The notes beneath the pieces are model-generated. The model saw only the letters and a program-made list of their open reading frames with translations. It did no database searches and was not told where the DNA came from. A DNA stretch of 38,845 nt. Origin: a bacterium (GTDB taxonomy: Bacteria; UBP15; UBA6099; JAJRTR01). Below are positions 29,962 through 38,845 of this stretch, piece after piece. The stretch is from contig JAJRTR010000182.1 of NCBI GenBank assembly GCA_024278215.1, forward strand, positions 62,001-100,845. The letters run 5' to 3'. Positions within the stretch are counted from its first letter, which is position 1; every line of letters begins with the position of its first letter. Both the position numbers and the translations under genes were made by a program.

Positions 29962-30184
29962 ACGTAATCACAAAACTACGACAATACGCCTCCGGGAAAG
30001 TATGGAGGACTCTCACAAAAGCAAGATATTTTTATTTGCATCGAAAAAAATCGAGGTCGACGGCGTAGAATTATATGAGAGGGAAAAATCGGGAGGAAAG
30101 GAAAGCAAGCATAATAAAACCTCTACGATACGGTCGATGGTACTACCCTTTCGGACAAAGGACTTTTGAACGGGAGGAGCCGAA

Positions 30185-30367
30185 ATGCTAAAGGAAAAGT
30201 TATTGACGGTAAAAGAAGCGGCCCGGTATTTAGACGTAAGCAAGGATTTCATTTACCGACGAGTTCAATATGAAACCGACGTGGTGAAAGTCGGTAGAGG
30301 AATCCGGTTTACGCTAAGGGCTTTGGAAAAGTGGGTTGCGAACAACACGGTAGCGGGGAGCGTTTAA
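30185..30367 (+). CDS. excisionase-like HTH protein
   Basis: LLTVKEAARYLDVSKDFIYRRV...KVGRGIRF....LEKWV; GGAGG RBS; directly before the integrase. Confidence 0.9.
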   Translation: MLKEKLLTVKEAARYLDVSKDFIYRRVQYETDVVKVGRGIRFTLRALEKWVANNTVAGSV

Positions 30368-30383
30368 TCGCGCTTCCCAACCC

Positions 30384-31607
30384 GTGAGGAAAGGGGGTGA
30401 TAACTTGTTTATACCGAAAGGGAAAAGGTATTGGTACTTCAATGTCTATGACGACATGGGGAAACAGCGGAAATTTTCCACGCGGGTTGAACCGTCCAAA
30501 CCGGGGGTTAAGTGGAGCGAGGAGAAAAAGGGCATAGTGAAAAAGGCGGAGGCGGCGAGAAGCCGGATACTTGCGGAAAAGGGTTACGGGACTCCCCGGT
30601 TTTCACAGGAACGGAAAGCCGTATCTTTCGAGGTCTTGTTCAACGAGTATTACGAACGCCACTCCAGGGTACACAAAAAGAGCCACCGGCACGACCTGTA
30701 CAAAGGACGACATTTATTGGAGGCGTTCGCGGGCGTCCGGGTCGATAAGATAACGCCCCTCGCGATTGAGCGATACAAGGCGAAACGACGGAAGGTAAGC
30801 GGCCCGGCGACGATAAACCGGGAACTCGCGCTCATCAAGCACATCTATACAAAGGGTATCGAGTGGGGGTACTGCCGGGAGAACCCGGCCAAGGGGGTAA
30901 AGCTATGCAAGGAGCCTCCATCCCGAAATATTACTCTCACAGACGACGAGCGTATGAGGCTCATAGAGAGTTGCGACCACCGAATCAGGCCCATTGTCCT
31001 TGTCGCTCTCCATACGGGCATGAGGCAAGGCGAGATTATGGGTATGCGTTGGGAGAACGTGCGGTTCAAAGGAGTTCCGTGTCCGCACATTTTACTCCCC
31101 GTTACAAAATCGGGTAAGCCCCGTGAAATTCCCATGAACCATATCGTTTATCAGGTCCTGTACGAGCAGCCGCGCAACGGCGAGAGGGTATTTAATCGGA
31201 GTTTCCCGCGCTACTCTTGGGAAAAGGCCGTACAGGAGTCGAGACTCAATGGGCTCCGGTTCCATGACCTCCGGCACGAGTTCGGGACGAGACTTGTGAA
31301 CAATGTTCCACTACCTCGTATCAAAGAGCTCCTCGGTCACTCGACAATCCAGATGACCATGAGCTACCTTCATACGACCTCTTTGGAGTTAAAAGAGGCG
31401 GTTGATTACTCGTGTGAGAACTCGCCGGAGTGGCGGAATTGGCAGACGCAGAGGGACGACATTGGTGCCCCTTTAGTGCCCCCAATCAATTCGGTTCATG
31501 TCTTCGCAGGCGGCACGAAAAACAAAAAAGCCCGCAAAAGCGGGCCGTTCACGATGCCGGAGACCGGGCTCGAACCGGTACGAGGGATAGCCCTCACGGG
31601 ATTTTAA
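30384..31607 (+). CDS. int: tyrosine integrase of element 1; ORF runs through the att site and stops in the anticodon-loop core
   Basis: SGPATINRE, HTGMRQGEI, TKSGK, RFHDLRH, LLGHS..MTMSY; start may be TTG 30405. Confidence 0.95.
   Translation: MRKGGDNLFIPKGKRYWYFNVYDDMGKQRKFSTRVEPSKPGVKWSEEKKGIVKKAEAARSRILAEKGYGTPRFSQERKAVSFEVLFNEYYERHSRVHKKSHRHDLYKGRHLLEAFAGVRVDKITPLAIERYKAKRRKVSGPATINRELALIKHIYTKGIEWGYCRENPAKGVKLCKEPPSRNITLTDDERMRLIESCDHRIRPIVLVALHTGMRQGEIMGMRWENVRFKGVPCPHILLPVTKSGKPREIPMNHIVYQVLYEQPRNGERVFNRSFPRYSWEKAVQESRLNGLRFHDLRHEFGTRLVNNVPLPRIKELLGHSTIQMTMSYLHTTSLELKEAVDYSCENSPEWRNWQTQRDDIGAPLVPPINSVHVFAGGTKNKKARKSGPFTMPETGLEPVRGIALTGF
31424..31457 (+). other. inverted 5' half of a tRNA-Leu inside the integrase 3' end
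   Basis: GCCGGAGTGGCGGAATTGGCAGACGC matches nt 1-26 of the neighbouring tRNA-Leu at 25/26, then AGA-GGGAC up to the anticodon loop. Confidence 0.85.
31524..31545 (-). terminator. intrinsic terminator of tRNA-Leu
   Basis: Minus strand GCCCGC-TTTT-GCGGGC-TTTTTT. Confidence 0.8.
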
Positions 31608-31640
31608 GTCCCGGGCGTCTACCAATTCCGCCACTCCGGC
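31555..31640 (-). tRNA. tRNA-Leu(TAA), CCA not encoded
   Basis: GCCGGAG/CTCCGGC acceptor stem, CGGGA-CTTAAAA-TCCCG anticodon arm, long variable arm GAGGG-CTAT-CCCTC, GGTTCGAGCCC T arm. Confidence 0.97.
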
Positions 31641-31843
31641 TTTTTAAAAATATCCTTTTGTTTAAGCCAATATTTGCTAACTTTACAATTGGTTTGCAGT
31701 AATCTATTTTGTGTTTCGCACAAATTCACCCTATTTATCTTAGCTTATGTGCGCTGAATTGAGAACAGATCGGTGAGATTTTCCAAATATTTGTTTGATG
31801 TGTTTTCTCCACGTCTTTATCGCGCATATTTCACCAATGCAGG

Positions 31844-31893
31844 CTAACCCGGCATAGCAGTAACCGAACAGGGTTTCAGTTGCGCCGGGTTAG
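31844..31893. repeat. inverted repeat with family B-like ends between the two tRNA genes
   Basis: CTAACCCGGC ... GCCGGGTTAG 10-bp perfect arms with a different interior. Confidence 0.55.
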
Positions 31894-31933
31894 GGAGGAT
31901 CCGCTTAAAGACGGAAAGATGTATACAGAATTC

Positions 31934-31962
31934 TTGACAACAGCAACCCTTCCCCCTATTAT
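31934..31962 (+). promoter_or_regulatory. sigma70 promoter of tRNA-Ala
   Basis: TTGACA 31934-31939, 17 nt spacer, TATTAT 31957-31962. Confidence 0.8.
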
Positions 31963-31974
31963 TCAATAGCACGA

Positions 31975-32047
31975 GGGGACTTAGCTCAGCTGGGAGAGCG
32001 CCGCCCTTGCACGGCGGAGGTCGAGGGTTCGAGCCCCTTAGTCTCCA
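31975..32047 (+). tRNA. tRNA-Ala(TGC), CCA not encoded
   Basis: GGGGACT/AGTCTCC acceptor stem with G3:U70; CCGCC-CTTGCAC-GGCGG anticodon arm; GGTTCGAGCCC. Confidence 0.97.
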
Positions 32048-32081
32048 TAACCAAGAAACACTGATAACTACAGGCTTTTTT

Positions 32082-32105
32082 GCCCCGTGGAGGGGCTTCC
32101 TTTTT
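32082..32105 (+). terminator. terminator-like hairpin after tRNA-Ala
   Basis: GCCCC-GTGGA-GGGGC-TTCCTTTTT. Confidence 0.55.
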
Positions 32106-32154
32106 GCCCTGTACCGGGCAGAAGTTAGCCAAGGTTAGACAAATCTTCACGTTT

Positions 32155-33174
32155 TCACTCCAGGAACGCCGCAATCTTCTTGTCACGTTTGTCACTCACG
32201 TGTGCGTAGATCATCGTGGTCATCGGGCTACTGTGACACAGGTAGTACTGCACGTCGTACAGGGTCGCATCTTTCTCAATCATCTCAGTTGCGCAGCGAT
32301 GACGCAACGCGTGGAACCGCCTGTCGGGGAGTCCGAGTTCTTCATCGACTTTATCCCGGACGCGCCGCCATGCAGCACGCGGGAAGTACGGGAACGGCTT
32401 GTCCTTGTTCTCGGACCTCAACTGGAACAGCAACTGGAAAACTGACTGCGGAGGCTTGCGGTAGTGTTCTTCAAGTCCGCCTTTCTTCTTACTAATCCAA
32501 TACTTGATGGTTTGTTTCCCGAAGTCAACATCCTTCCACTCGACTCTCAGAATCTCTTTCAGGCGTCGCCCCGTCTTCAGAGCGAAGAATACAATCGAGT
32601 ACAGGTATGAGCTTTCTTTCCTGGCCTCTTTAAGGATAGCATCTGTATGCTCAGCGGTGAGAAACTGCTTTACCGGGCGAGACGGATACGCCTTTGTCTT
32701 TGCCACTGGGTTCTTGGTGCAATACTCCCACTCGATGGCCCTGTTGAAGATTGCGCTTAGAACGTTGCGATACCTGTTCCAGGTGGTACCCTGGCGTGTC
32801 TTTACAACTTTGTTGTGGAACCTGCGGATGTCCAGGGGAGATATGTCATCCATCATCTTCCCGGAGAACTCCCTCTCGATCAGGTTCATTCGAGACTTGT
32901 CGATGGTGTAGTTCTCTTTGTACAGAGCAAAGACTTCATCAAACGACCGCGCCGGCAGTCGCTGTATGTCCAGGTCTTCGTCCGAGACCCGTTTCAGAAT
33001 GACTCTTTCGGCTTCTACTTTTATCGACTTCATCTCATTGTTCCACTTAATGCCTTTCTTCGAGGCTCTGACGCCGCTGGACAGCGTACGTCGAGAACCT
33101 TCTGACAGCTTGATCTTGCAGGCCCATAGGCCTTTTACTTGCCACCAATACACTAAATCACTTCCTTTCGTCAC
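32155..33174 (-). CDS. int: tyrosine integrase of element 2
   Basis: KTGRRLKEILRVEWKDVDF, RRFHALRH, YLCHSSPMTTMIYAH; start probably GTG 33174 or 33153 because longer starts overlap xis. Confidence 0.93.
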   Translation of the reverse strand: MTKGSDLVYWWQVKGLWACKIKLSEGSRRTLSSGVRASKKGIKWNNEMKSIKVEAERVILKRVSDEDLDIQRLPARSFDEVFALYKENYTIDKSRMNLIEREFSGKMMDDISPLDIRRFHNKVVKTRQGTTWNRYRNVLSAIFNRAIEWEYCTKNPVAKTKAYPSRPVKQFLTAEHTDAILKEARKESSYLYSIVFFALKTGRRLKEILRVEWKDVDFGKQTIKYWISKKKGGLEEHYRKPPQSVFQLLFQLRSENKDKPFPYFPRAAWRRVRDKVDEELGLPDRRFHALRHRCATEMIEKDATLYDVQYYLCHSSPMTTMIYAHVSDKRDKKIAAFLE

Positions 33175-33232
33175 CTCCCTTATACCGGAATGTACATTTA
33201 TTATCTCCGGCAAAGGGTTGCTCTGGCAAGGG

Positions 33233-33562
33233 TTAGTCAAATAACCGTCCCGTACGTTTTGCCTTTTCGATAAGGGAATCCAGTTCTTCCTTGGGCACCA
33301 GAATCCTGCGTCCGTGCTTAATCGTCCGGACGTGCGCCCGCATACGCGCATAGCCTTCAGTTGTACCAATGCCAAGATACGCGCAGGCCTCCTCCATGGA
33401 CAGCATTCGCTTCTGCGCAGCCATGGAATGGAGAATCTCCGTGAGTAGTTCTTCGATTCTGAACAGGGATTCTAAAGCGGTCGCAGCATGGGGCTGCTGC
33501 TGGTTCTCAGTGGTCGATACAGCCGTAGATTCTTGTTGATCCGAATGGGATGGTTGCTCCAT
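33233..33562 (-). CDS. excisionase-like HTH protein with N-terminal extension
   Basis: MLSMEEACAYLGIG....Y......IKHGRRILVPKEELDSLI; GAGGAG RBS. Confidence 0.88.
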   Translation of the reverse strand: MEQPSHSDQQESTAVSTTENQQQPHAATALESLFRIEELLTEILHSMAAQKRMLSMEEACAYLGIGTTEGYARMRAHVRTIKHGRRILVPKEELDSLIEKAKRTGRLFD

Positions 33563-33694
33563 AGGACAACGCTCCTCTTGCGTTGGCGTCGTCCCAGGTG
33601 GCGTTCAATGTCGAACGCGCGTGGACGTCTACCTGTTTCTCGGCACTGCGCTTTCAGGATTTGCCGTGCCGGTTAATATTGAACCGCCGTGGAC

Positions 33695-34933
33695 TTAACG
33701 GCGGAATTTCTGCTCACTTATCATGGTACCGTGGCGTTGCTGGAATTGCTGGTGACGTGTGTGCCACATGTCCAGCAGGCTCGGTAGTTTTACATGGCCG
33801 CACTTGACGGTGTTCCGGTCCCGCTTGCATAGTCCACGCATGACCTTCTTCCTGACCAGTACATCGAGGTCTTCGATCTGGTACGACACGTTGACGGCTC
33901 CAAAGTGACCGAGCCAGCCAGCGAAGATTTCACGTAGATCATCGCAGACCTCTTTCAGTTCACCGTGGGTATATTCGACCATCTTCTTAGTCACTTTTAA
34001 GTCCAGCTTTCCCACAGCCTTCTCCGATGCACGGACTCTGATCCAATCATCTTTCAGCATGATGTCGTATCCAAGAAACACAAAGCTATCGGCAGCATGA
34101 CGGAGGTGGGTCTTCGACTCCTTCTGCTCCAGCCCCACGTTTGCCAGAGATTGCGCTGAGAACTCACGCGCCAGGATTGCTTCTTGCTCTGTCATGCAAA
34201 AGACTATTATGTCGTCGGCATAGCGAATGAGTTTGAACCTGGCGGCGGTCATCTCACGGTCGTACCCGGTGAGATATATATTGCACATCAGAGGCGATAA
34301 TGGTCCGCCTTGGTGCAACCCCGAAAGGTTTGGTTCCTCTGGAGTGGTATCAAGCGGGGATCGCATTATCCGGTGAATAAGTTCGATGACCCTGGGATCG
34401 TTCACAATGTCGATGGACATATCAAGAACGGGTTGGTGTGGAATATTCGGAAAGCAGGCTGCAATGTCAGTTTCGAACACACACAAGTCGCCTTCCTTCA
34501 AGATGATGACGATCCTTTTCAGGGCCGTGAGTGGACCACGGTCTGGTCGAAACCCATGGCTGCAATCTTCGAAAGTTGGCTTGAACATCGGTTCGATCAC
34601 CTGCCGGATTGCCGTTCCAACCACGCGGTCGTAAACAGTCGGTATTCCCAGGATGCGACAACCATCTCGTTTCATGGCCTCGTGGATGGAAATCCTCACT
34701 GGCAGGCCAGTCACCTTGTCGAGAGGGACTTGTCTCACCGGGTCAGACCAGTACGACATCGCGAGTAGCTCTCGTTGGATTTGTGCGGCATAATGATCGT
34801 ACCGCTGTACAAACTTGGCTGCTGTCACACCATCGACACCTGCACCCTGGTTCTCATCACGTGCCCGCTTACGGACATGACAGAATGCACGACGGATGTT
34901 TTCCTTGCTGGCTATCTGTTCGAGTAAGCTCAT
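33695..34933 (-). CDS. group II intron-like reverse transcriptase with maturase/thumb domain, no endonuclease domain
   Basis: GAGVDG (RT0), RILGIPTVYDRV, SHGFRPDR, ETDIAACF, LHQGGPLSPLMCNIYL, RYADD, FVFLGY, AGWLGHF; start ATG 34933 (MSLLEQIAS). Confidence 0.95.
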   Translation of the reverse strand: MSLLEQIASKENIRRAFCHVRKRARDENQGAGVDGVTAAKFVQRYDHYAAQIQRELLAMSYWSDPVRQVPLDKVTGLPVRISIHEAMKRDGCRILGIPTVYDRVVGTAIRQVIEPMFKPTFEDCSHGFRPDRGPLTALKRIVIILKEGDLCVFETDIAACFPNIPHQPVLDMSIDIVNDPRVIELIHRIMRSPLDTTPEEPNLSGLHQGGPLSPLMCNIYLTGYDREMTAARFKLIRYADDIIVFCMTEQEAILAREFSAQSLANVGLEQKESKTHLRHAADSFVFLGYDIMLKDDWIRVRASEKAVGKLDLKVTKKMVEYTHGELKEVCDDLREIFAGWLGHFGAVNVSYQIEDLDVLVRKKVMRGLCKRDRNTVKCGHVKLPSLLDMWHTRHQQFQQRHGTMISEQKFRR

Positions 34934-35314
34934 AAGAAAGAAGGTGGCGACAGCCACCACCTGAATTGGGCGCAAGCTGCGGTCGGAGCCGGGAGCGTGG
35001 CCGGGCGCGTTTCTGTGCCCTGCTCAGGTGTTCTCTATACCCGCATGGCCTCGCTCTATGCGTGGACCGTGGCGGCGGCCTCCTACTGCTGTCTCCTACC
35101 GTATCCTCATCCAGGTGTATCAAAGCCCTATAGGCTCTGTACACTACTGCCCTTGCGGCTGGCTTACCACCATGATCGCAGTCTGCGATCACTGAACCTT
35201 GCGGCTCGTGGTGGGGGCATTCGGTAGTCTTGCGTAATGTTTTCCCGTACTCCTCTCGTTTTTAGTTTGTCTCTGCGCTGTTTTCTGTCATGGGCGGCGC
35301 GTGTTCCGGTGCTT
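34934..35314 (-). ncRNA. putative structured leader/ncRNA upstream of the RT
   Basis: Nested helices and a GCAA tetraloop on the minus strand; begins just downstream of an extended -10 promoter; boundaries inferred. Confidence 0.55.
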
Positions 35315-35320
35315 ACCTTC

Positions 35321-35329
35321 ATTATAGCA
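35321..35329 (-). promoter_or_regulatory. extended -10 promoter facing the leader-RT-xis-int unit
   Basis: Minus strand TG-C-TATAAT (plus strand ATTATAGCA). Confidence 0.65.
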
Positions 35330-36376
35330 AACGGGTTTCGAAGCTATTGGCCATTGAAAAGGCCTGTAACGATAGGCATATTTGTTTGCCCTGTATACTG
35401 ATACAGGTTGGTTGTCACAATGACGGCATAGTGCCCGTTGCATTGCCTTTGTCCAGCGACATGACGGAAACCGGAGACTTCTGTGGCTAATTCCTTGTCA
35501 AGGGGGTTAGGCAAATAAAGTTTCGGCAGCGTGTTCCGGCTATCTTCTTATTGCATGGCTATGCGTTGTACCGGGAAGCTCTGTCCTTCGCCGTGTTCAC
35601 CGTAATCAGATAGTCGGACGGGTAGTCTTCATCTCGGCATCTGCCGTGCCTCTGGGTGCCGACGTTGAGGTCTGATAACACTTCCCGTCACCCGCATAGT
35701 TCACAAGGACTACTATCCAGTGCCAGTCTGATGTACCCCATTTGGGGTGCTACCCCCACCTGCCAAATGCCATACACCCTTTACGGCTGCTGTCACGGAA
35801 CTGAATTCCGCTGTTCCCACAGGATTCCAGGCAGGGGAATTATTCCCGCTGGCCAGAGCCAACTAACCGGAATGACCAGTGTTCTTTTACGGTCTATGCA
35901 ACGTTATACGGGTTTGACACGTGTTTCCTTCCGAATCCGCTTGTTACTGGTTGCTTTCCGCTTCGATCCTATTGCAAAACAGGGGGTATCTGTCATATGT
36001 CACTATGCCCTGTACGGGGTCCTTTTCTGAGCGTTCCAACATGGTGTCAAAACTGTATATTGATGCATGGAAGGCACTGTTCCTGTATCTGACTACAGGT
36101 TTGACATGTGTCTGGCGGGCTGTAGCGTGGCACTGGACCTGTGCAGGGGTGCCTATGTTACACCATCAACGGGGCCAGTGCTATGCAACGTCTCTTTTAA
36201 TGTCCATAAAGAGCAGCATGGTGGCCGGACATAAGCACTGCCCGACCCCATGCAGAAAACTCAGGCATGGGAGCCGCGTGCATTTCCACATGCCCAATCA
36301 TTCAACAGTCCGAATGTATAAAACGGACCGGATTATGCTCTTTTTATGCTGTGGTTTCAGATAGGGAAAGTTGCCG

Positions 36377-36694
36377 TCAACGCAGTAGCAAGTTGACTTT
36401 CTGCTGTAGTTCGTACTGCATGTCGGAGTCTCTCAGACGTCTGTAGAACCCTTCAATGAAAAGGTCCTTGTCCGGCACGCCACCGAATTCCTCAATGAAT
36501 TCGGCAGTCTGATACTCGGGCCATATATCGTCGAAGTAATCCGAAGATATCTCATGCCCGTGCGCAGCTTTGGTGAGTTCACCGAAGTCAGTGCAGTTAT
36601 CAGGCCATTCGTCTGCGAACTCTTCACCAAGCCCAAGATTACGCTCAACGTAATCTCCTGCGGACCGCGACAATGCGTCGTCTCTGTTTCTCAT
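36377..36694 (-). CDS. acidic hypothetical protein, paralog 3 (105 aa)
   Basis: AAGGAG RBS before ATG 36694; shares DxGELTKAAxGHxIS and FGGVPDK..F.EGF with 36738-37049. Confidence 0.85.
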   Translation of the reverse strand: MRNRDDALSRSAGDYVERNLGLGEEFADEWPDNCTDFGELTKAAHGHEISSDYFDDIWPEYQTAEFIEEFGGVPDKDLFIEGFYRRLRDSDMQYELQQKVNLLLR

Positions 36695-36737
36695 AATGGC
36701 AATCTCCTTTCCGTGCAGTCCATGTGCACGATTCGTG

Positions 36738-37049
36738 TTACGACTGTTGCAGATCGAGAAGTATTCCGCATGCTCGGTCTCGCAGGTCATCCAGTTTGTT
36801 GTTGAAGCCTTCAAGGAATGCTCCCTTGTCGGGCACCCCGCCGAAGTCTTCCACAAATTCCTTCCGGCTCAGTTCATCCCAGATATACTCCGGGATATCC
36901 GATATAGGATGTCCTGCGGCGGCTTTCGTCAGTTCGCCGTAGTCGTTGCAATCCTCAAGCCATGGCCCGGCGTATTCTGGTCCGAGGTTACGACTCTGCT
37001 CCATGAACTCGTCCATGGATTCGATCAGGGTCTGTGTCCTGTTGGTCAT
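36738..37049 (-). CDS. acidic hypothetical protein, paralog 2 (103 aa)
   Basis: AAAGGAGGTG RBS before ATG 37049; paralogy with the downstream gene, with many synonymous differences. Confidence 0.87.
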   Translation of the reverse strand: MTNRTQTLIESMDEFMEQSRNLGPEYAGPWLEDCNDYGELTKAAAGHPISDIPEYIWDELSRKEFVEDFGGVPDKGAFLEGFNNKLDDLRDRACGILLDLQQS

Positions 37050-37136
37050 GTCAACACCTCCTTTCCCGTTAGGTTCATGATGATCTATTCCCTCCTCAAA
37101 CACCCATCCAGCGCATGAGATTTCTGGCTGACACTC

Positions 37137-37457
37137 TCACTGATCAGACTCGCGCAGGTCTTCCAGAGTCTCCTTTATCTCAGGGTACAAGTCGTCGAGG
37201 CCCAGCTCGATACCGATACAAACATGATCGAAGTCAGGTCGTCGTCCATGCTTGGCAATGAAGTCTTCCAGTAGTCCATAAAGCTCAAGATCATCCATTG
37301 TGTTTTCATGAACAATAGCTCCTGCACCTTTCAATGCGGCCTGATGCCAATCTTCGTCGTCCTGATGTTCTTCGAACATAGTCCGTGCGTAATTGAAACC
37401 TATCTCCTCACAGTCCATCATGAATGCAAACTGCTTATCTGTTTTCTGCTGTTCCAT
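37137..37457 (-). CDS. acidic hypothetical protein, distant paralog 1 (106 aa)
   Basis: DFIAKHGRRPDFDHVCIGIELGLDDL aligns without gaps to EFVEDFGGVPDKGAFLEGFNNKLDDL; similar length and charge. Confidence 0.75.
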   Translation of the reverse strand: MEQQKTDKQFAFMMDCEEIGFNYARTMFEEHQDDEDWHQAALKGAGAIVHENTMDDLELYGLLEDFIAKHGRRPDFDHVCIGIELGLDDLYPEIKETLEDLRESDQ

Positions 37458-37835
37458 TGTGTTCTGCGTGCTGTGTTTTTCCTTTCCAAAAGTTAAAAAC
37501 GACTCTCTCCTCTTTTTCGTCTATCAGGCGCACAGCCCCGATGCCGCTGCAGCCCCTGACCGTGTACTGCCTGCCGCTGGCCGCTGTTCCATGTTCTGGG
37601 TTTACCTCCTTTCTTCACCTTGAACTTTTCCCTTATCTCAACTGACCTTCTATCGAACCGTAGGCAAGAGCTTCTGAACTGAACAGCTACAGTGCTCTTC
37701 TATTACCGATGTACTATTAATGACTATATCCTCTTCAAAACGTTCGTCAGAGCTACAGCTATAGACTGTTGTACTGCATGTTGTATACTGTAAAGATAGG
37801 TTGTACGAAAACGTTGAGTAACTTCTGGAGCGTTC

Positions 37836-38600
37836 ATGCCTGGAAAGACACAAAAAGCTATACTCAATGCCCTGGTTAGACGGCCCAATGGAGTGAGACT
37901 TCAGGCATTATCTGAGGAACTTGGGATTGATGCCAGAATCCTGAACCCGCCGATTGCTCGGCTGGAGAAAGCAGGATATGTTGAGCGATTCAAGGGAACA
38001 TACAGAAAGAAGCAAAAACAGTACGTCAAGATAACAAAACCAAAAGGGCGAGACTTTCTTAGATACGGAAAGGATAATTCAACGTTTTTATCGGATCCGT
38101 CTGGTTACCGAGGGGTGTCGGTTTACAGGGAATCATTGGAATTATGGGAGGCTCTAAAGTTTAAGAAGGTTACCGTTGGACACGGGGAACGAGAGATATG
38201 GGACAAAGAGGAGAAGGTTAAGAAGACAATCCCCTTCATTAACCGGAAGCGTCCTATCAACATAGCCTTGAGAGACTTTGTGGATAAGTACAAGAACGTA
38301 GACATGTTTTTCACGCCAGCGGAGACATGGGTGGGAAAAGGGAGCGTATTGAATTTTATTCGTTCACACTGTTTATGGTTTTCATCTGATCTCCCACTGA
38401 ATAATAATGACCAACCGCTAACGGCAGTTAAAAGACATAGCATCATCGTTTCAAAGACACAGAGACTCATCAAGGATGAGCTTCATCCTTTCGCAATTAT
38501 TGAATCAGGATATGACTTTCATGTTTTGCTTATGGTGCAGAACTATATGAAGAATGATAAACGGTTAAATTTCAGGACTCCTGACCTGGGAGAAGGGTAG
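37836..38600 (+). CDS. winged-helix protein with a degenerate RepB/AEP primase-like C-terminal domain
   Basis: N-terminal ILNAL...LQALSEELGID...IARLEKAGYVER wHTH; C-terminal DMFFTP, CLWFSSD, PFAIIESGYDFHV, RLNFRTP; GGAG RBS. Confidence 0.7.
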   Translation: MPGKTQKAILNALVRRPNGVRLQALSEELGIDARILNPPIARLEKAGYVERFKGTYRKKQKQYVKITKPKGRDFLRYGKDNSTFLSDPSGYRGVSVYRESLELWEALKFKKVTVGHGEREIWDKEEKVKKTIPFINRKRPINIALRDFVDKYKNVDMFFTPAETWVGKGSVLNFIRSHCLWFSSDLPLNNNDQPLTAVKRHSIIVSKTQRLIKDELHPFAIIESGYDFHVLLMVQNYMKNDKRLNFRTPDLGEG

Positions 38601-38845
38601 AAAAGAGGGCATGGCGAGAGAGGCACACAAAAAAGCGTATGAATAAAGGAAAAATGTCGAGTGGAGAGAAAGATAACAAAATATGACGGGACGCTACAAA
38701 GGGAAAAAAGATATGATACAATATAGGGAACACATACAGCAGTGAGTGGGGGAAGATATGCCACAGATGATATTGCCGTTGTTTCCGGCGGAGGCCACCG
38801 CGATTAATGAACATCTGGCGTTCTGTAAAAAAGACGGCCAGGTAT

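Follow-up and report, generated by a model that had tools for sequence, protein, structure and literature searches.

What is a reverse transcriptase (RT) of group II intron type doing next to the excisionase and integrase genes of a genomic island? The question is raised by G000:C160:62001-100845, a stretch of 38,845 nt from the source genome G000 that we analysed at its full length (hereafter the window) and whose right edge coincides with the end of its contig. Here, an RT gene lies upstream of an excisionase-like gene (xis) and a tyrosine integrase gene (int). An earlier, sequence-only reading had put this arrangement forward as a candidate new system, in which an intron-derived RT is embedded in the xis-int unit. 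Our best reading is that the category is a known one, the domesticated group II-like (G2L) RT, and that the lineage itself is new and very small. We put the probability at roughly 0.6 that the RT is a free-standing, domesticated enzyme of group II intron type, G2L-like, with an endonuclease-less (En-less) RT-thumb-D (DNA-binding) architecture and without a ribozyme, carried as a passenger on the island. In the narrower statement that it is a free-standing G2L-type RT, neither an intron nor coupled to xis and int, our confidence is good. The features on which the argument turns are these:

33695-34933 from ATG (33695-34975 if TTG start), minus strand: open reading frame (ORF) of the RT, 412 aa from the ATG
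34667..34705, minus strand: 13-aa insertion in the fingertip loop (RT1) of the RT, L77-R89 (MAFFT; 14 gap columns in HMMER)
33563..33694, minus strand: spacer between RT and xis, 132 bp, with a single hairpin, without U-run and without domain V/VI
33233..33562, minus strand: xis, excisionase-like helix-turn-helix (HTH) protein of 109 aa (Pfam HTH_17, 3e-06; PHROG 66, excisionase/transcriptional regulator; TIGR01764, 7e-05, below cutoff)
32155..33375, minus strand: int, tyrosine integrase ORF with a TTG start as listed (Pfam Phage_integrase, 2.9e-21; PHROG 1, integrase, 3.3e-47)

An intron-type enzyme of a very small lineage

The ATG at 34933 is the aligned start in all three members of the clade described below, giving a protein of 412 aa, and codon usage in this frame is host-like (0.20 per codon, versus -0.25 and -0.39 out of frame). 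The protein matches Pfam RVT_1 (E 7.4e-27) and, over almost the entire model (positions 2-352 of 353), the NCBIfam group II RT/maturase profile TIGR04416, at 236 bits and thus under the 300-bit cutoff; the match to Pfam GIIM is weak (19.9 bits, cutoff 23). YADD is present, the aspartate of motif 3 is conserved in the alignments, and the catalytic residues are invariant over 79 aligned sequences. An AlphaFold model of high confidence (pLDDT 95.2) was compared with solved structures by Foldseek and overlays the GsI-IIC RT (6ar1) with a TM score of 0.77 over 418 alignment columns at ~26% identity; the thumb and D regions are therefore present in the window RT. It also overlays G2L4 (TM 0.71); the fits to DRT9 (0.67) and DRT2 (0.50), both defence-associated RTs (DRTs), were poorer, as was that to an RT from a diversity-generating retroelement (DGR). 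The best solved relatives by sequence are likewise class IIC intron RTs, namely 7uim, a retroelement RT from E. rectale (118 bits), and GsI-IIC (114 bits), as against 41 bits for G2L4; a rough reading of the sequence alignments puts identity to the class IIC enzymes at ~30%. With these class C-type, En-less intron RTs the protein shares its length (~410-430 aa), the order of blocks RT0-7 with 2a and 3a, the thumb, the D region and the lack of an endonuclease domain. It differs from them in having no ribozyme around its ORF, in scoring 236 bits where the NCBIfam equivalog cutoff is 300, and in its extra fingertip loop.

That loop, reported by the sequence-only reading as a fingers insertion of ~14 aa, proved real. 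It is modelled with a short helix at residues 83-88 and with a pLDDT of 93-95 across blocks 71-90. The insertion is common to the window RT (P0001) and its closest relative, P0002; the third clade member, P0121, is without it and has a loop shorter than usual. The 412-aa protein is unfused and carries no effector domain, and no effector gene adjoins it. The anatomy first described from the letters was thus correct: an intact, group II-like RT, complete with YADD and a thumb, precedes xis by 132 bp, int comes next, and tRNA-Ala lies alongside.

Relatives of this enzyme are few. A search of 5.8 billion clustered proteins returned P0002 as the sole close relative (52% identity; next, at most 39%), and an exhaustive HMMER search of 1.84 billion representatives added P0121 (43% identity). 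Among the 17,978 matches of the latter search, scores fall from 438 bits (P0002) and 299 bits (P0121) to 171. Profile searches located the clade in two of 13 genomes of the phylum and in two of 401 genomes of a wider sample, with 786 and 759 bits compared with at most 194 for the rest. In a FastTree phylogeny of 90 rows, computed without outgroup and read with FastTree support values, the three members group together (support 100, stem length 0.75), with four sister proteins (P0135, P0155, P0163 and P0174) as their neighbours. The tree comprised 78 of the 150 listed HMMER matches (P0122-P0199), nine locus ORFs and the three clade members, and left out P0200-P0268 and the short ORFs of L011 and L016-L018. 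Against the TIGR04416 cutoff of 300 bits, these groups score as follows:

Clade, three members: 236, 244 and 257 bits
Four sister proteins: 290-307 bits
Four ordinary intron RTs: 361-391 bits

Searches of other sequence collections added little. Genome contigs and viral contigs held no close relatives of the window RT. With P0121 as the query, genome contigs gave just 31-34% matches in Erysipelotrichaceae and viral contigs none, and an alignment of all three members found no match in viral contigs either. A metagenome scan returned the DNA of the P0002 locus once more (L015, 100% identical to L014) plus one relative at 28%. In tblastn searches of plasmids and phages, nothing above 33% identity was among the matches listed, and every best match stayed under 60%.

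Is the gene maintained, or is it a relic? Between the window RT and its homolog in genome G003, the proportion of nonsynonymous differences (pN) is 0.316 and that of synonymous differences (pS), which is saturated, is 0.882, over 395 codons. On this comparison, the gene is under purifying selection, not under the relaxed selection that was to have spoken against a domesticated enzyme. DNA and protein searches found a single RT copy in G000, and there is one clade copy in G003, with the caveat that metagenome-assembled genomes (MAGs) can collapse repeats; some of the ordinary intron RTs in the sampled genomes occur in three copies (G278, G210). Neither several copies nor insertion in a recognisable target, which would be signs of retromobility, was found for the window RT. 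The gene is thus present once and kept by selection, and its lineage is very small, with three sequence clusters among 1.84 billion representatives.

G2L RTs are an established category of free-standing, group II-like enzymes that keep the thumb/maturase region and come with no intron RNA (PMC2602772, PMC4244168). The window RT fits this definition: like G2L4, G2L5 and later clades (Simon and Zimmerly 2008; Toro and Nisa-Martinez 2014; Gonzalez-Delgado 2021), it is an RT nearest to those of group II introns, with a thumb/maturase region, no detectable intron RNA and a single copy, and such RTs sometimes lie near defence genes. It is set apart from G2L4, which has YIDD in place of YADD and to whose chains it scores 41 bits, and from G2L5, in which DD is changed to DN where the window RT has DD intact; the comparison covers these two and leaves the four newer clades of Toro 2019 outside. 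The 13-aa fingertip insertion, present in two of the three clade members, is a further difference from G2L RTs.

Another relative in kind is DRT10, the former G2L3 and now UG17 (PMC8632793), which combines a non-coding RNA (ncRNA), a SLATT protein and a YVDD RT (PMC12632851). The ncRNA, ~137 nt in length and upstream of the RT, is one of its defining parts (PMC12632851). Group II-like ancestry with a thumb, residence in defence islands and an occasional position beside a dispensable tyrosine recombinase are common ground (PMC12632851). The window RT differs in its YADD, and it has no SLATT gene: none was matched among the scanned window neighbours, and the gap upstream is without a coding ORF. 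UG17 is the best DRT-family match in PADLOC, nearly full-length, with 116 bits in the window and 116-130 bits across the two loci; the generic RT model reaches 212 bits. DRT2 and DRT9 resemble the locus in having only an RT as coding content, behind non-coding DNA, but they are remote (Drt2 45 bits, Drt9 56 bits).

Three further classes of RT were considered, and what the sequence-only reading had said of their hallmarks, namely that cas1, Avd, a TR/VR pair of template and variable repeats and the retron motif are missing, was confirmed by family, repeat and profile scans. For CRISPR-associated RTs, the Pfam matches of 28 window ORFs include no Cas family, and 32000-38845 holds no repeat array. 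A PADLOC match of the RT to 'Cas1_IIIb' was discarded, as it extends over no more than the RT portion (positions 21-275 of 617) of what is a fused model. For DGRs, neither a TR/VR repeat pair nor an Avd accessory gene was found; the only direct repeat of at least 16 nt in 30000-38845 is one 22-nt pair at 77% identity, and a DGR RT chain gave 23.6 bits. Some retrons travel with integrative phages and satellites, where they adjoin int; phage phiR73 provides an example. Such retrons are similar to the window RT as cargo near the integrase of a tRNA-integrating element, from which point the two differ: the score to NF038233 is 34.9 bits (cutoff 235), and no retron RNA family (msr/msd) is among the Rfam matches in the region. 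Judged by the defining features that were tested, the window RT belongs neither with G2L4 or DRT10 nor with retrons, CRISPR RTs, DGRs or mobile introns, the last of which bring us to the RNA.

Intron RNA, the island and the excisionase-integrase pair

Across the whole window, no Rfam group II family matched at gathering score, the sole Rfam matches being two tRNAs. Between 33000 and 37000, no group II model, including RF00029 and D1-D4, matched on either strand at E<=10, and at the locus of the 52% homolog none matched at E<=1 or at gathering score. As a control, the same models were run on 14 loci of ordinary RT relatives and recovered intron RNA (RF00029 and/or D1-D4) at 12, six of seven at E<=1 and six of seven further loci at gathering score. 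No fewer than five D1-D4 model types are represented among the 12 positives; in the two loci that were missed (L007 and L030), the ORF is a fused one, 808 and 1003 aa long. Because these models work on the nearest relatives of the RT, their silence at the clade loci is informative. Nor do the expected intron parts show up by other means: GTGYG is absent from the 1443 nt 5' of the RT, where shuffles led us to expect 2.35 occurrences, neither domains I-IV with a GUGYG 5' end upstream nor domain V/VI downstream of the ORF could be found, and RF00029 was missing from the G000 and G003 genomes among the 150 of ~330 first-look candidates that were scored in each. Canonical domain V/VI and the GUGYG 5' end were thus rightly called absent, and the full intron that was to have overturned the early proposal did not appear among the Rfam group II models in the window. 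The idea of a ribozyme-less, domesticated group II-type RT is borne out accordingly: the gene is full-length, conserved and single-copy, with no intron RNA at the two readable clade loci.

How, then, did it come to lie beside xis and int? The RT stop (33695-33697) is followed by the xis ATG at 33562, and RT, xis and int all have the same orientation. The integrase gene lies 108 bp from a tRNA-Ala gene, the 3' part of which is repeated on another contig of the same genome:

31975..32047, plus strand: tRNA-Ala(TGC), integration target of the island (Rfam tRNA, 65.6 bits; ARAGORN)
32006..32047, plus strand: attL core, the last 42 nt of tRNA-Ala, with an exact copy at G000:C16:12444-12485, the candidate attR (blastn, 42/42)

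A pattern search found the 42-bp sequence at these two places in its own genome, with no tRNA gene at the C16 copy. We read the two repeats, from their sequence and position, as the putative attL and attR of a tRNA-Ala genomic island, which comprises at least window positions 32048-38845 and C16:1-12443, ~19 kb in all, C160 and C16 presumably joining within it. The far end (C16:1-12443; L023) encodes HsdS, ORF6N, HsdM, an 813-aa PKD-domain protein, a PD-(D/E)XK nuclease, DUF932 and a GemA-like protein. The window RT is thus a passenger, situated where the tRNA-Ala island borders on its integrase, and it shares the island with type I restriction-modification (R-M) genes.

The homolog allows us to ask which of these neighbours the RT keeps. 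Genome G003 belongs to the same order as the source genome but to a different family, and its RT, P0002, lies at G003:C157 (L014). Within 19 kb around it there is no xis, no integrase or other recombinase and no tRNA. The upstream side is occupied by a DUF3800 gene and by Mod and Res of type III (PADLOC, 628 and 769 bits), the downstream side by thiolase-type metabolic genes. Homologs of the window's xis, int, three small acidic proteins and winged-helix protein, the latter two encoded further into the island, are all missing from the G003 locus, and the RT is therefore the only conserved unit. The comparative evidence does not support an RT wired into an excisionase-integrase unit, and its position beside xis and int seems positional, not functional. 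Two observations in the window concur. A second pair of HTH (xis-like) and int genes at a tRNA-Leu, 1.7 kb off, is without an RT, its integrase being of the same family (28% identity from residue 70). In addition, a promoter-like site at 33229-33200, between xis and int, is the best such site in the region; the true start of int is probably near 33174-33195, since homology begins at about residue 70. With an RT-free pair at tRNA-Leu, an integrase with a promoter-like site of its own and a homolog far from any xis, int or tRNA, the proposal of a new system embedded in the xis-int unit does not stand, and the synteny of ncRNA, RT, xis and int that it predicted is not conserved at the one homolog locus that can be read. 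Full-text literature searches likewise found no published description of a group II-like RT functionally tied to xis-int.

The G003 locus has peculiarities of its own. A 68-bp direct repeat (88% identity; L014 5934-6001 and 7436-7503) flanks the DUF3800 gene, its first copy being the 3' end of the type III res gene, and it seems that a DUF3800 cassette entered the DNA that separates res from the RT region. Past the G003 RT, a gap of 740 bp holds several G+C-rich hairpins (L014 10450-10974, z -2.8 to -4.0), which resemble REP or terminator elements; they have no counterpart in the window, where xis comes 132 bp after the RT.

Possible function and the upstream non-coding DNA

What could such an enzyme be kept for? 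Both readable RT loci lie in R-M neighbourhoods, type I in the window's island and type III in G003, and this fits the published frequency with which G2L RTs are found close to defence systems, 25% of the known ones (PMC8632793). That the RT acts in defence is a tentative proposal, for which we would give somewhat less than even odds. It had been raised as an alternative when the locus was first read, and it remains plausible to the extent that both contexts are of R-M type; what it lacks is a match to any tested family of defence RTs. On this view, the RT would benefit the island or the host, most likely through anti-phage defence, by synthesising complementary DNA (cDNA) from an RNA template, for which its own long 5' leader would be the first candidate. 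Translation would probably be kept low by a hairpin and U-tract that abut the ATG without a Shine-Dalgarno sequence.

RTs of the free-standing, group II-like kind are regarded as capturing stages in the recruitment of a selfish intron's enzyme for host functions, as in CRISPR adaptation, DRT10 defence and G2L4 repair. The window lineage adds one such branch; it is rare, and its enzyme is intact, modelled with high confidence and unusual in its fingertip insertion. Should it prove to be a defence or cDNA-producing enzyme, domestication would have happened independently here, and an RT so compact and En-less might be of biotechnological use.

Attention thus turns to the DNA before the gene, the relevant features of which are:

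34942..34962, minus strand: terminator-like hairpin of 9 pairs, then a pyrimidine/U tract reaching the RT ATG (scan)
34934..35330, minus strand: candidate RT leader, 58% G+C (0.577), downstream of an extended -10-like TGnTATAAT motif near 35330 (read by eye)
35390..36111, no strand assigned: dispersed repeats in non-coding DNA (18-nt direct pair, 89%; 28-nt inverted pair, 79% complementary; two CCTGTAT..ACAGG palindromes with a 7-bp stem)
36170..36376, minus strand: compact multi-hairpin structure (three hairpins and an outer closing stem) directly after the stop of the last acidic gene; minimum free energy -72.8 kcal/mol, z -3.23, 1/200 shuffles equally good

By codon statistics (score and frame contrast), 34934-36376 is non-coding: the best of 10 ORFs scored, 57 aa long, reaches 0.054 per codon, compared with 0.06-0.28 for nine real genes. 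The impression that ~1.4 kb here lacks a credible ORF was therefore accurate. The companion claim, that this DNA is rich in helices, holds in part. Among 20 folding windows of 150 nt upstream of the ATG, two beat shuffles at z < -2.5 (36350-36201, z -5.08; 35225-35076, z -2.9), and the others do not pass that threshold. The candidate leader of ~400 nt folds at z -1.78, with 5/100 shuffles equally good, which falls short of significance. In G003, an analogous hairpin and U-run lie directly before the RT ATG, and the 340-nt leader, counted from a TTGACA/TATCAT pair, is significantly structured, at z -3.08 (0/100 shuffles equally good), and includes a long hairpin.

Several candidate signals in this region were considered and set aside. 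The gaps without convincing genes before the RT are nearly equal in length (1443 nt in the window; 1456 nt in G003, counted from the 68-bp repeat), but a large conserved RNA as their explanation was dropped, G+C per 150 nt being 0.47-0.57 versus 0.31-0.55 and similarity no better than that of shuffles. Folded together by RNAalifold, the leaders gave a weak consensus of -26.9 kcal/mol, to which the covariation bonus contributes half; since the underlying alignment is also essentially arbitrary, this structure was rejected. A Shine-Dalgarno sequence is missing before the RT at both readable clade loci, as had been noted for the window; an obvious one is also missing in about half of the 17 window genes whose starts were inspected by eye, and its lack was dropped as a special feature of the RT. 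The 1.47 kb of upstream DNA found no match in 12 other genomes of the phylum or in phages.

The repeats at 35390-36111 may be protein-binding, operator, oriT or origin-like sites of the island; by our own rough estimate, the two longest would be expected by chance fewer than 0.05 times. The structure at 36170-36376, which has no Rfam match and is unique in the G000 genome, could serve the acidic gene cluster as its 3' untranslated region or as a terminator complex, or could be a small RNA in its own right.

A number of observations weigh against the free-standing, island-borne RT that we favour, or against the function suggested for it. Function is argued from the context of two loci only, one of which is simply an island, and the UG17 score of 116 bits lies far under the generic RT and group II scores, which places the RT outside all families of defence RTs that were tested. 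For the window leader, folding reaches just z -1.8, the upstream regions of the window and G003 show no likeness beyond shuffles (Smith-Waterman score 13, mean of shuffles 13.0), and a comparison of the two upstream regions revealed no conserved ncRNA, nor is there an effector gene or domain. As to the intron, G000 (207 contigs) and G003 (~200 contigs) are fragmented MAGs from which introns, as repeats, can be missing, the genome-wide RF00029 negative rests on 150 of ~330 candidates per genome, and the evidence from loci covers two of the three clade members (the window and G003), with the P0121 locus outside the comparison. Finally, the gap of 132 bp from RT to xis, both co-oriented, contains no canonical terminator, so that RT, xis and int could still be co-transcribed in the source genome.

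The most durable of the other explanations is a two-part defence system similar to DRT2, DRT9 or DRT10, in which the RT would copy a dedicated, structured upstream ncRNA repeatedly into functional cDNA. It overlaps with the mechanism that we favour, the stronger claim being that the ncRNA is a defined component. To the extent that the available literature shows, an RT with an upstream ncRNA, as in DRT2 and DRT9, is the only known way in which a bare RT confers immunity, and the window RT, with neither effector domain nor adjoining effector gene, would suit it. So would the ~1.45 kb without convincing genes before the RT at both loci, the significant structure of the G003 leader, the hairpin and U-tract with which both leaders end at the ATG, and the nearly full-length match to UG17/DRT10, the former G2L3, as the best DRT profile (PMC8632793). 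Set against these are the dissimilarity of leaders and entire upstream regions, the weak consensus, the modest z of the window leader and the lack of an Rfam family; moreover, the most structured element (36350-36201) is 1.2 kb away from the RT, with another gene immediately before it, and two sequences cannot show covariation. The suggestion that the RT works with ncRNA of its own therefore gains from the structured G003 leader and loses from upstream regions that do not align. A dedicated ncRNA is possible, and the two-part system as a whole we consider unlikely. Distinctly more doubtful is its boldest form, that the RT and part of the 1.4-kb leader constitute a new, independently domesticated RT-ncRNA immune module, derived from a class C-type intron enzyme and separate from UG/Abi DRTs and CRISPR RTs, with the fingertip loop adapting the RT to a new template or primer and the hairpin and U-tract gating expression. 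If true, this would be a second route from an intron RT to bare-RT defence, so far seen only in a candidate phylum of 13 genomes.

Housekeeping DNA repair of the G2L4 kind, by microhomology-mediated end joining or snap-back synthesis, would dispense with defence altogether. G2L4, with its YIDD, works in double-strand-break repair; no other free-standing G2L RT has been characterised, and basal activity of this type is also known from the RT of a mobile intron (10.1101/2022.03.14.484287, PMC11761039). The window RT resembles G2L4 in fold and stands alone without a partner gene, but has YADD, not YIDD, and scores poorly against the G2L4 chains. The gene sits on a mobile island and occurs in just two of 13 genomes of the phylum, a distribution unlike that of a core repair gene. 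We give this explanation little credence.

About as unlikely, and if anything slightly more so, is an intron that escaped recognition or is decaying, be it that its ribozyme is too divergent for Rfam or that a dead intron has left the ORF behind, perhaps to act in trans on introns elsewhere. The protein keeps all features of an intron RT, including thumb/X and D, repeats are often lost from MAGs, and for G2L RTs, Simon and Zimmerly leave room for a ribozyme that is unusual or remotely located (PMC2602772). The controls speak another language, with Rfam intron RNA at 12 of 14 control loci and at neither of two clade loci, and GTGYG is absent upstream. The flanks of the two homologs have diverged beyond recognition around a conserved ORF, which is the opposite of the intron pattern because domain V is the most conserved part of an intron. 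The gene is also single-copy, RF00029 was not found among the candidates scored, and xis follows directly, 132 bp past the RT stop.

Weakest of all is a role with xis-int in the life cycle of the island, cDNA serving as substrate or regulator of the tyrosine recombinase, for which the co-oriented order of RT, xis and int across 132 bp without a canonical terminator, and a D (DNA-binding) region retained by fold, are outweighed by a 52% homolog without recombinase, xis or tRNA in 19 kb, an integrase of the same family with its HTH partner at tRNA-Leu but no RT, and the promoter-like site of int itself. Tyrosine recombinases act on double-stranded att sites, and to our knowledge they have no need for cDNA. 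A tyrosine recombinase lies beside two of three E. coli DRT10 systems, where it is dispensable for immunity and thus irrelevant to RT function (PMC12632851).

Further contents of the islands

Beyond the non-coding DNA, the remaining genes of the tRNA-Ala island in the window are:

36377..37457, minus strand: three tandem paralogous small acidic proteins, ~105-121 aa (pairwise identity 49% and 29%; coding scores 0.17-0.28)
37836..38600, plus strand: winged-helix (MarR-like) protein of 254 aa, divergent, in the island (Pfam MarR_2, 2.3e-05, below cutoff)

The acidic proteins have no match in Pfam, PADLOC, NCBIfam or PHROG. They share a motif containing G-V-P-D-K. As a guess, they might be anti-restriction or DNA-mimic proteins, to judge by how large and how charged they are and by their place in the island. 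As partners of the RT they were dropped, being absent from the G003 locus. At the far end of the island, an ORF6N/Rha-like gene is inserted between hsdS and hsdM; hsdR was not seen in C16:1-12443 and may lie past the contig start.

A second island, 10967-31607, lies to the left of tRNA-Leu, such that two tRNA-anchored islands face each other across ~340 bp. It encodes an SNF2 helicase with a SWIM/HTH protein, a B12-binding radical SAM enzyme, a complete type I R-M system (hsdM, hsdS, hsdR), an ADP-ribosylglycohydrolase, two zinc-ribbon proteins and the HTH and integrase pair. An inverted copy of 24-26 nt of the 5' end of this tRNA-Leu (31555-31640, minus strand) is found at 31424-31449 on the plus strand, ~110 bp from the tRNA and 23/24 identical by eye. 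It lies in the 3' tail of the second integrase ORF (30384-31607), which continues into the tRNA in antisense, and may be the remnant of an older integration or an att site.

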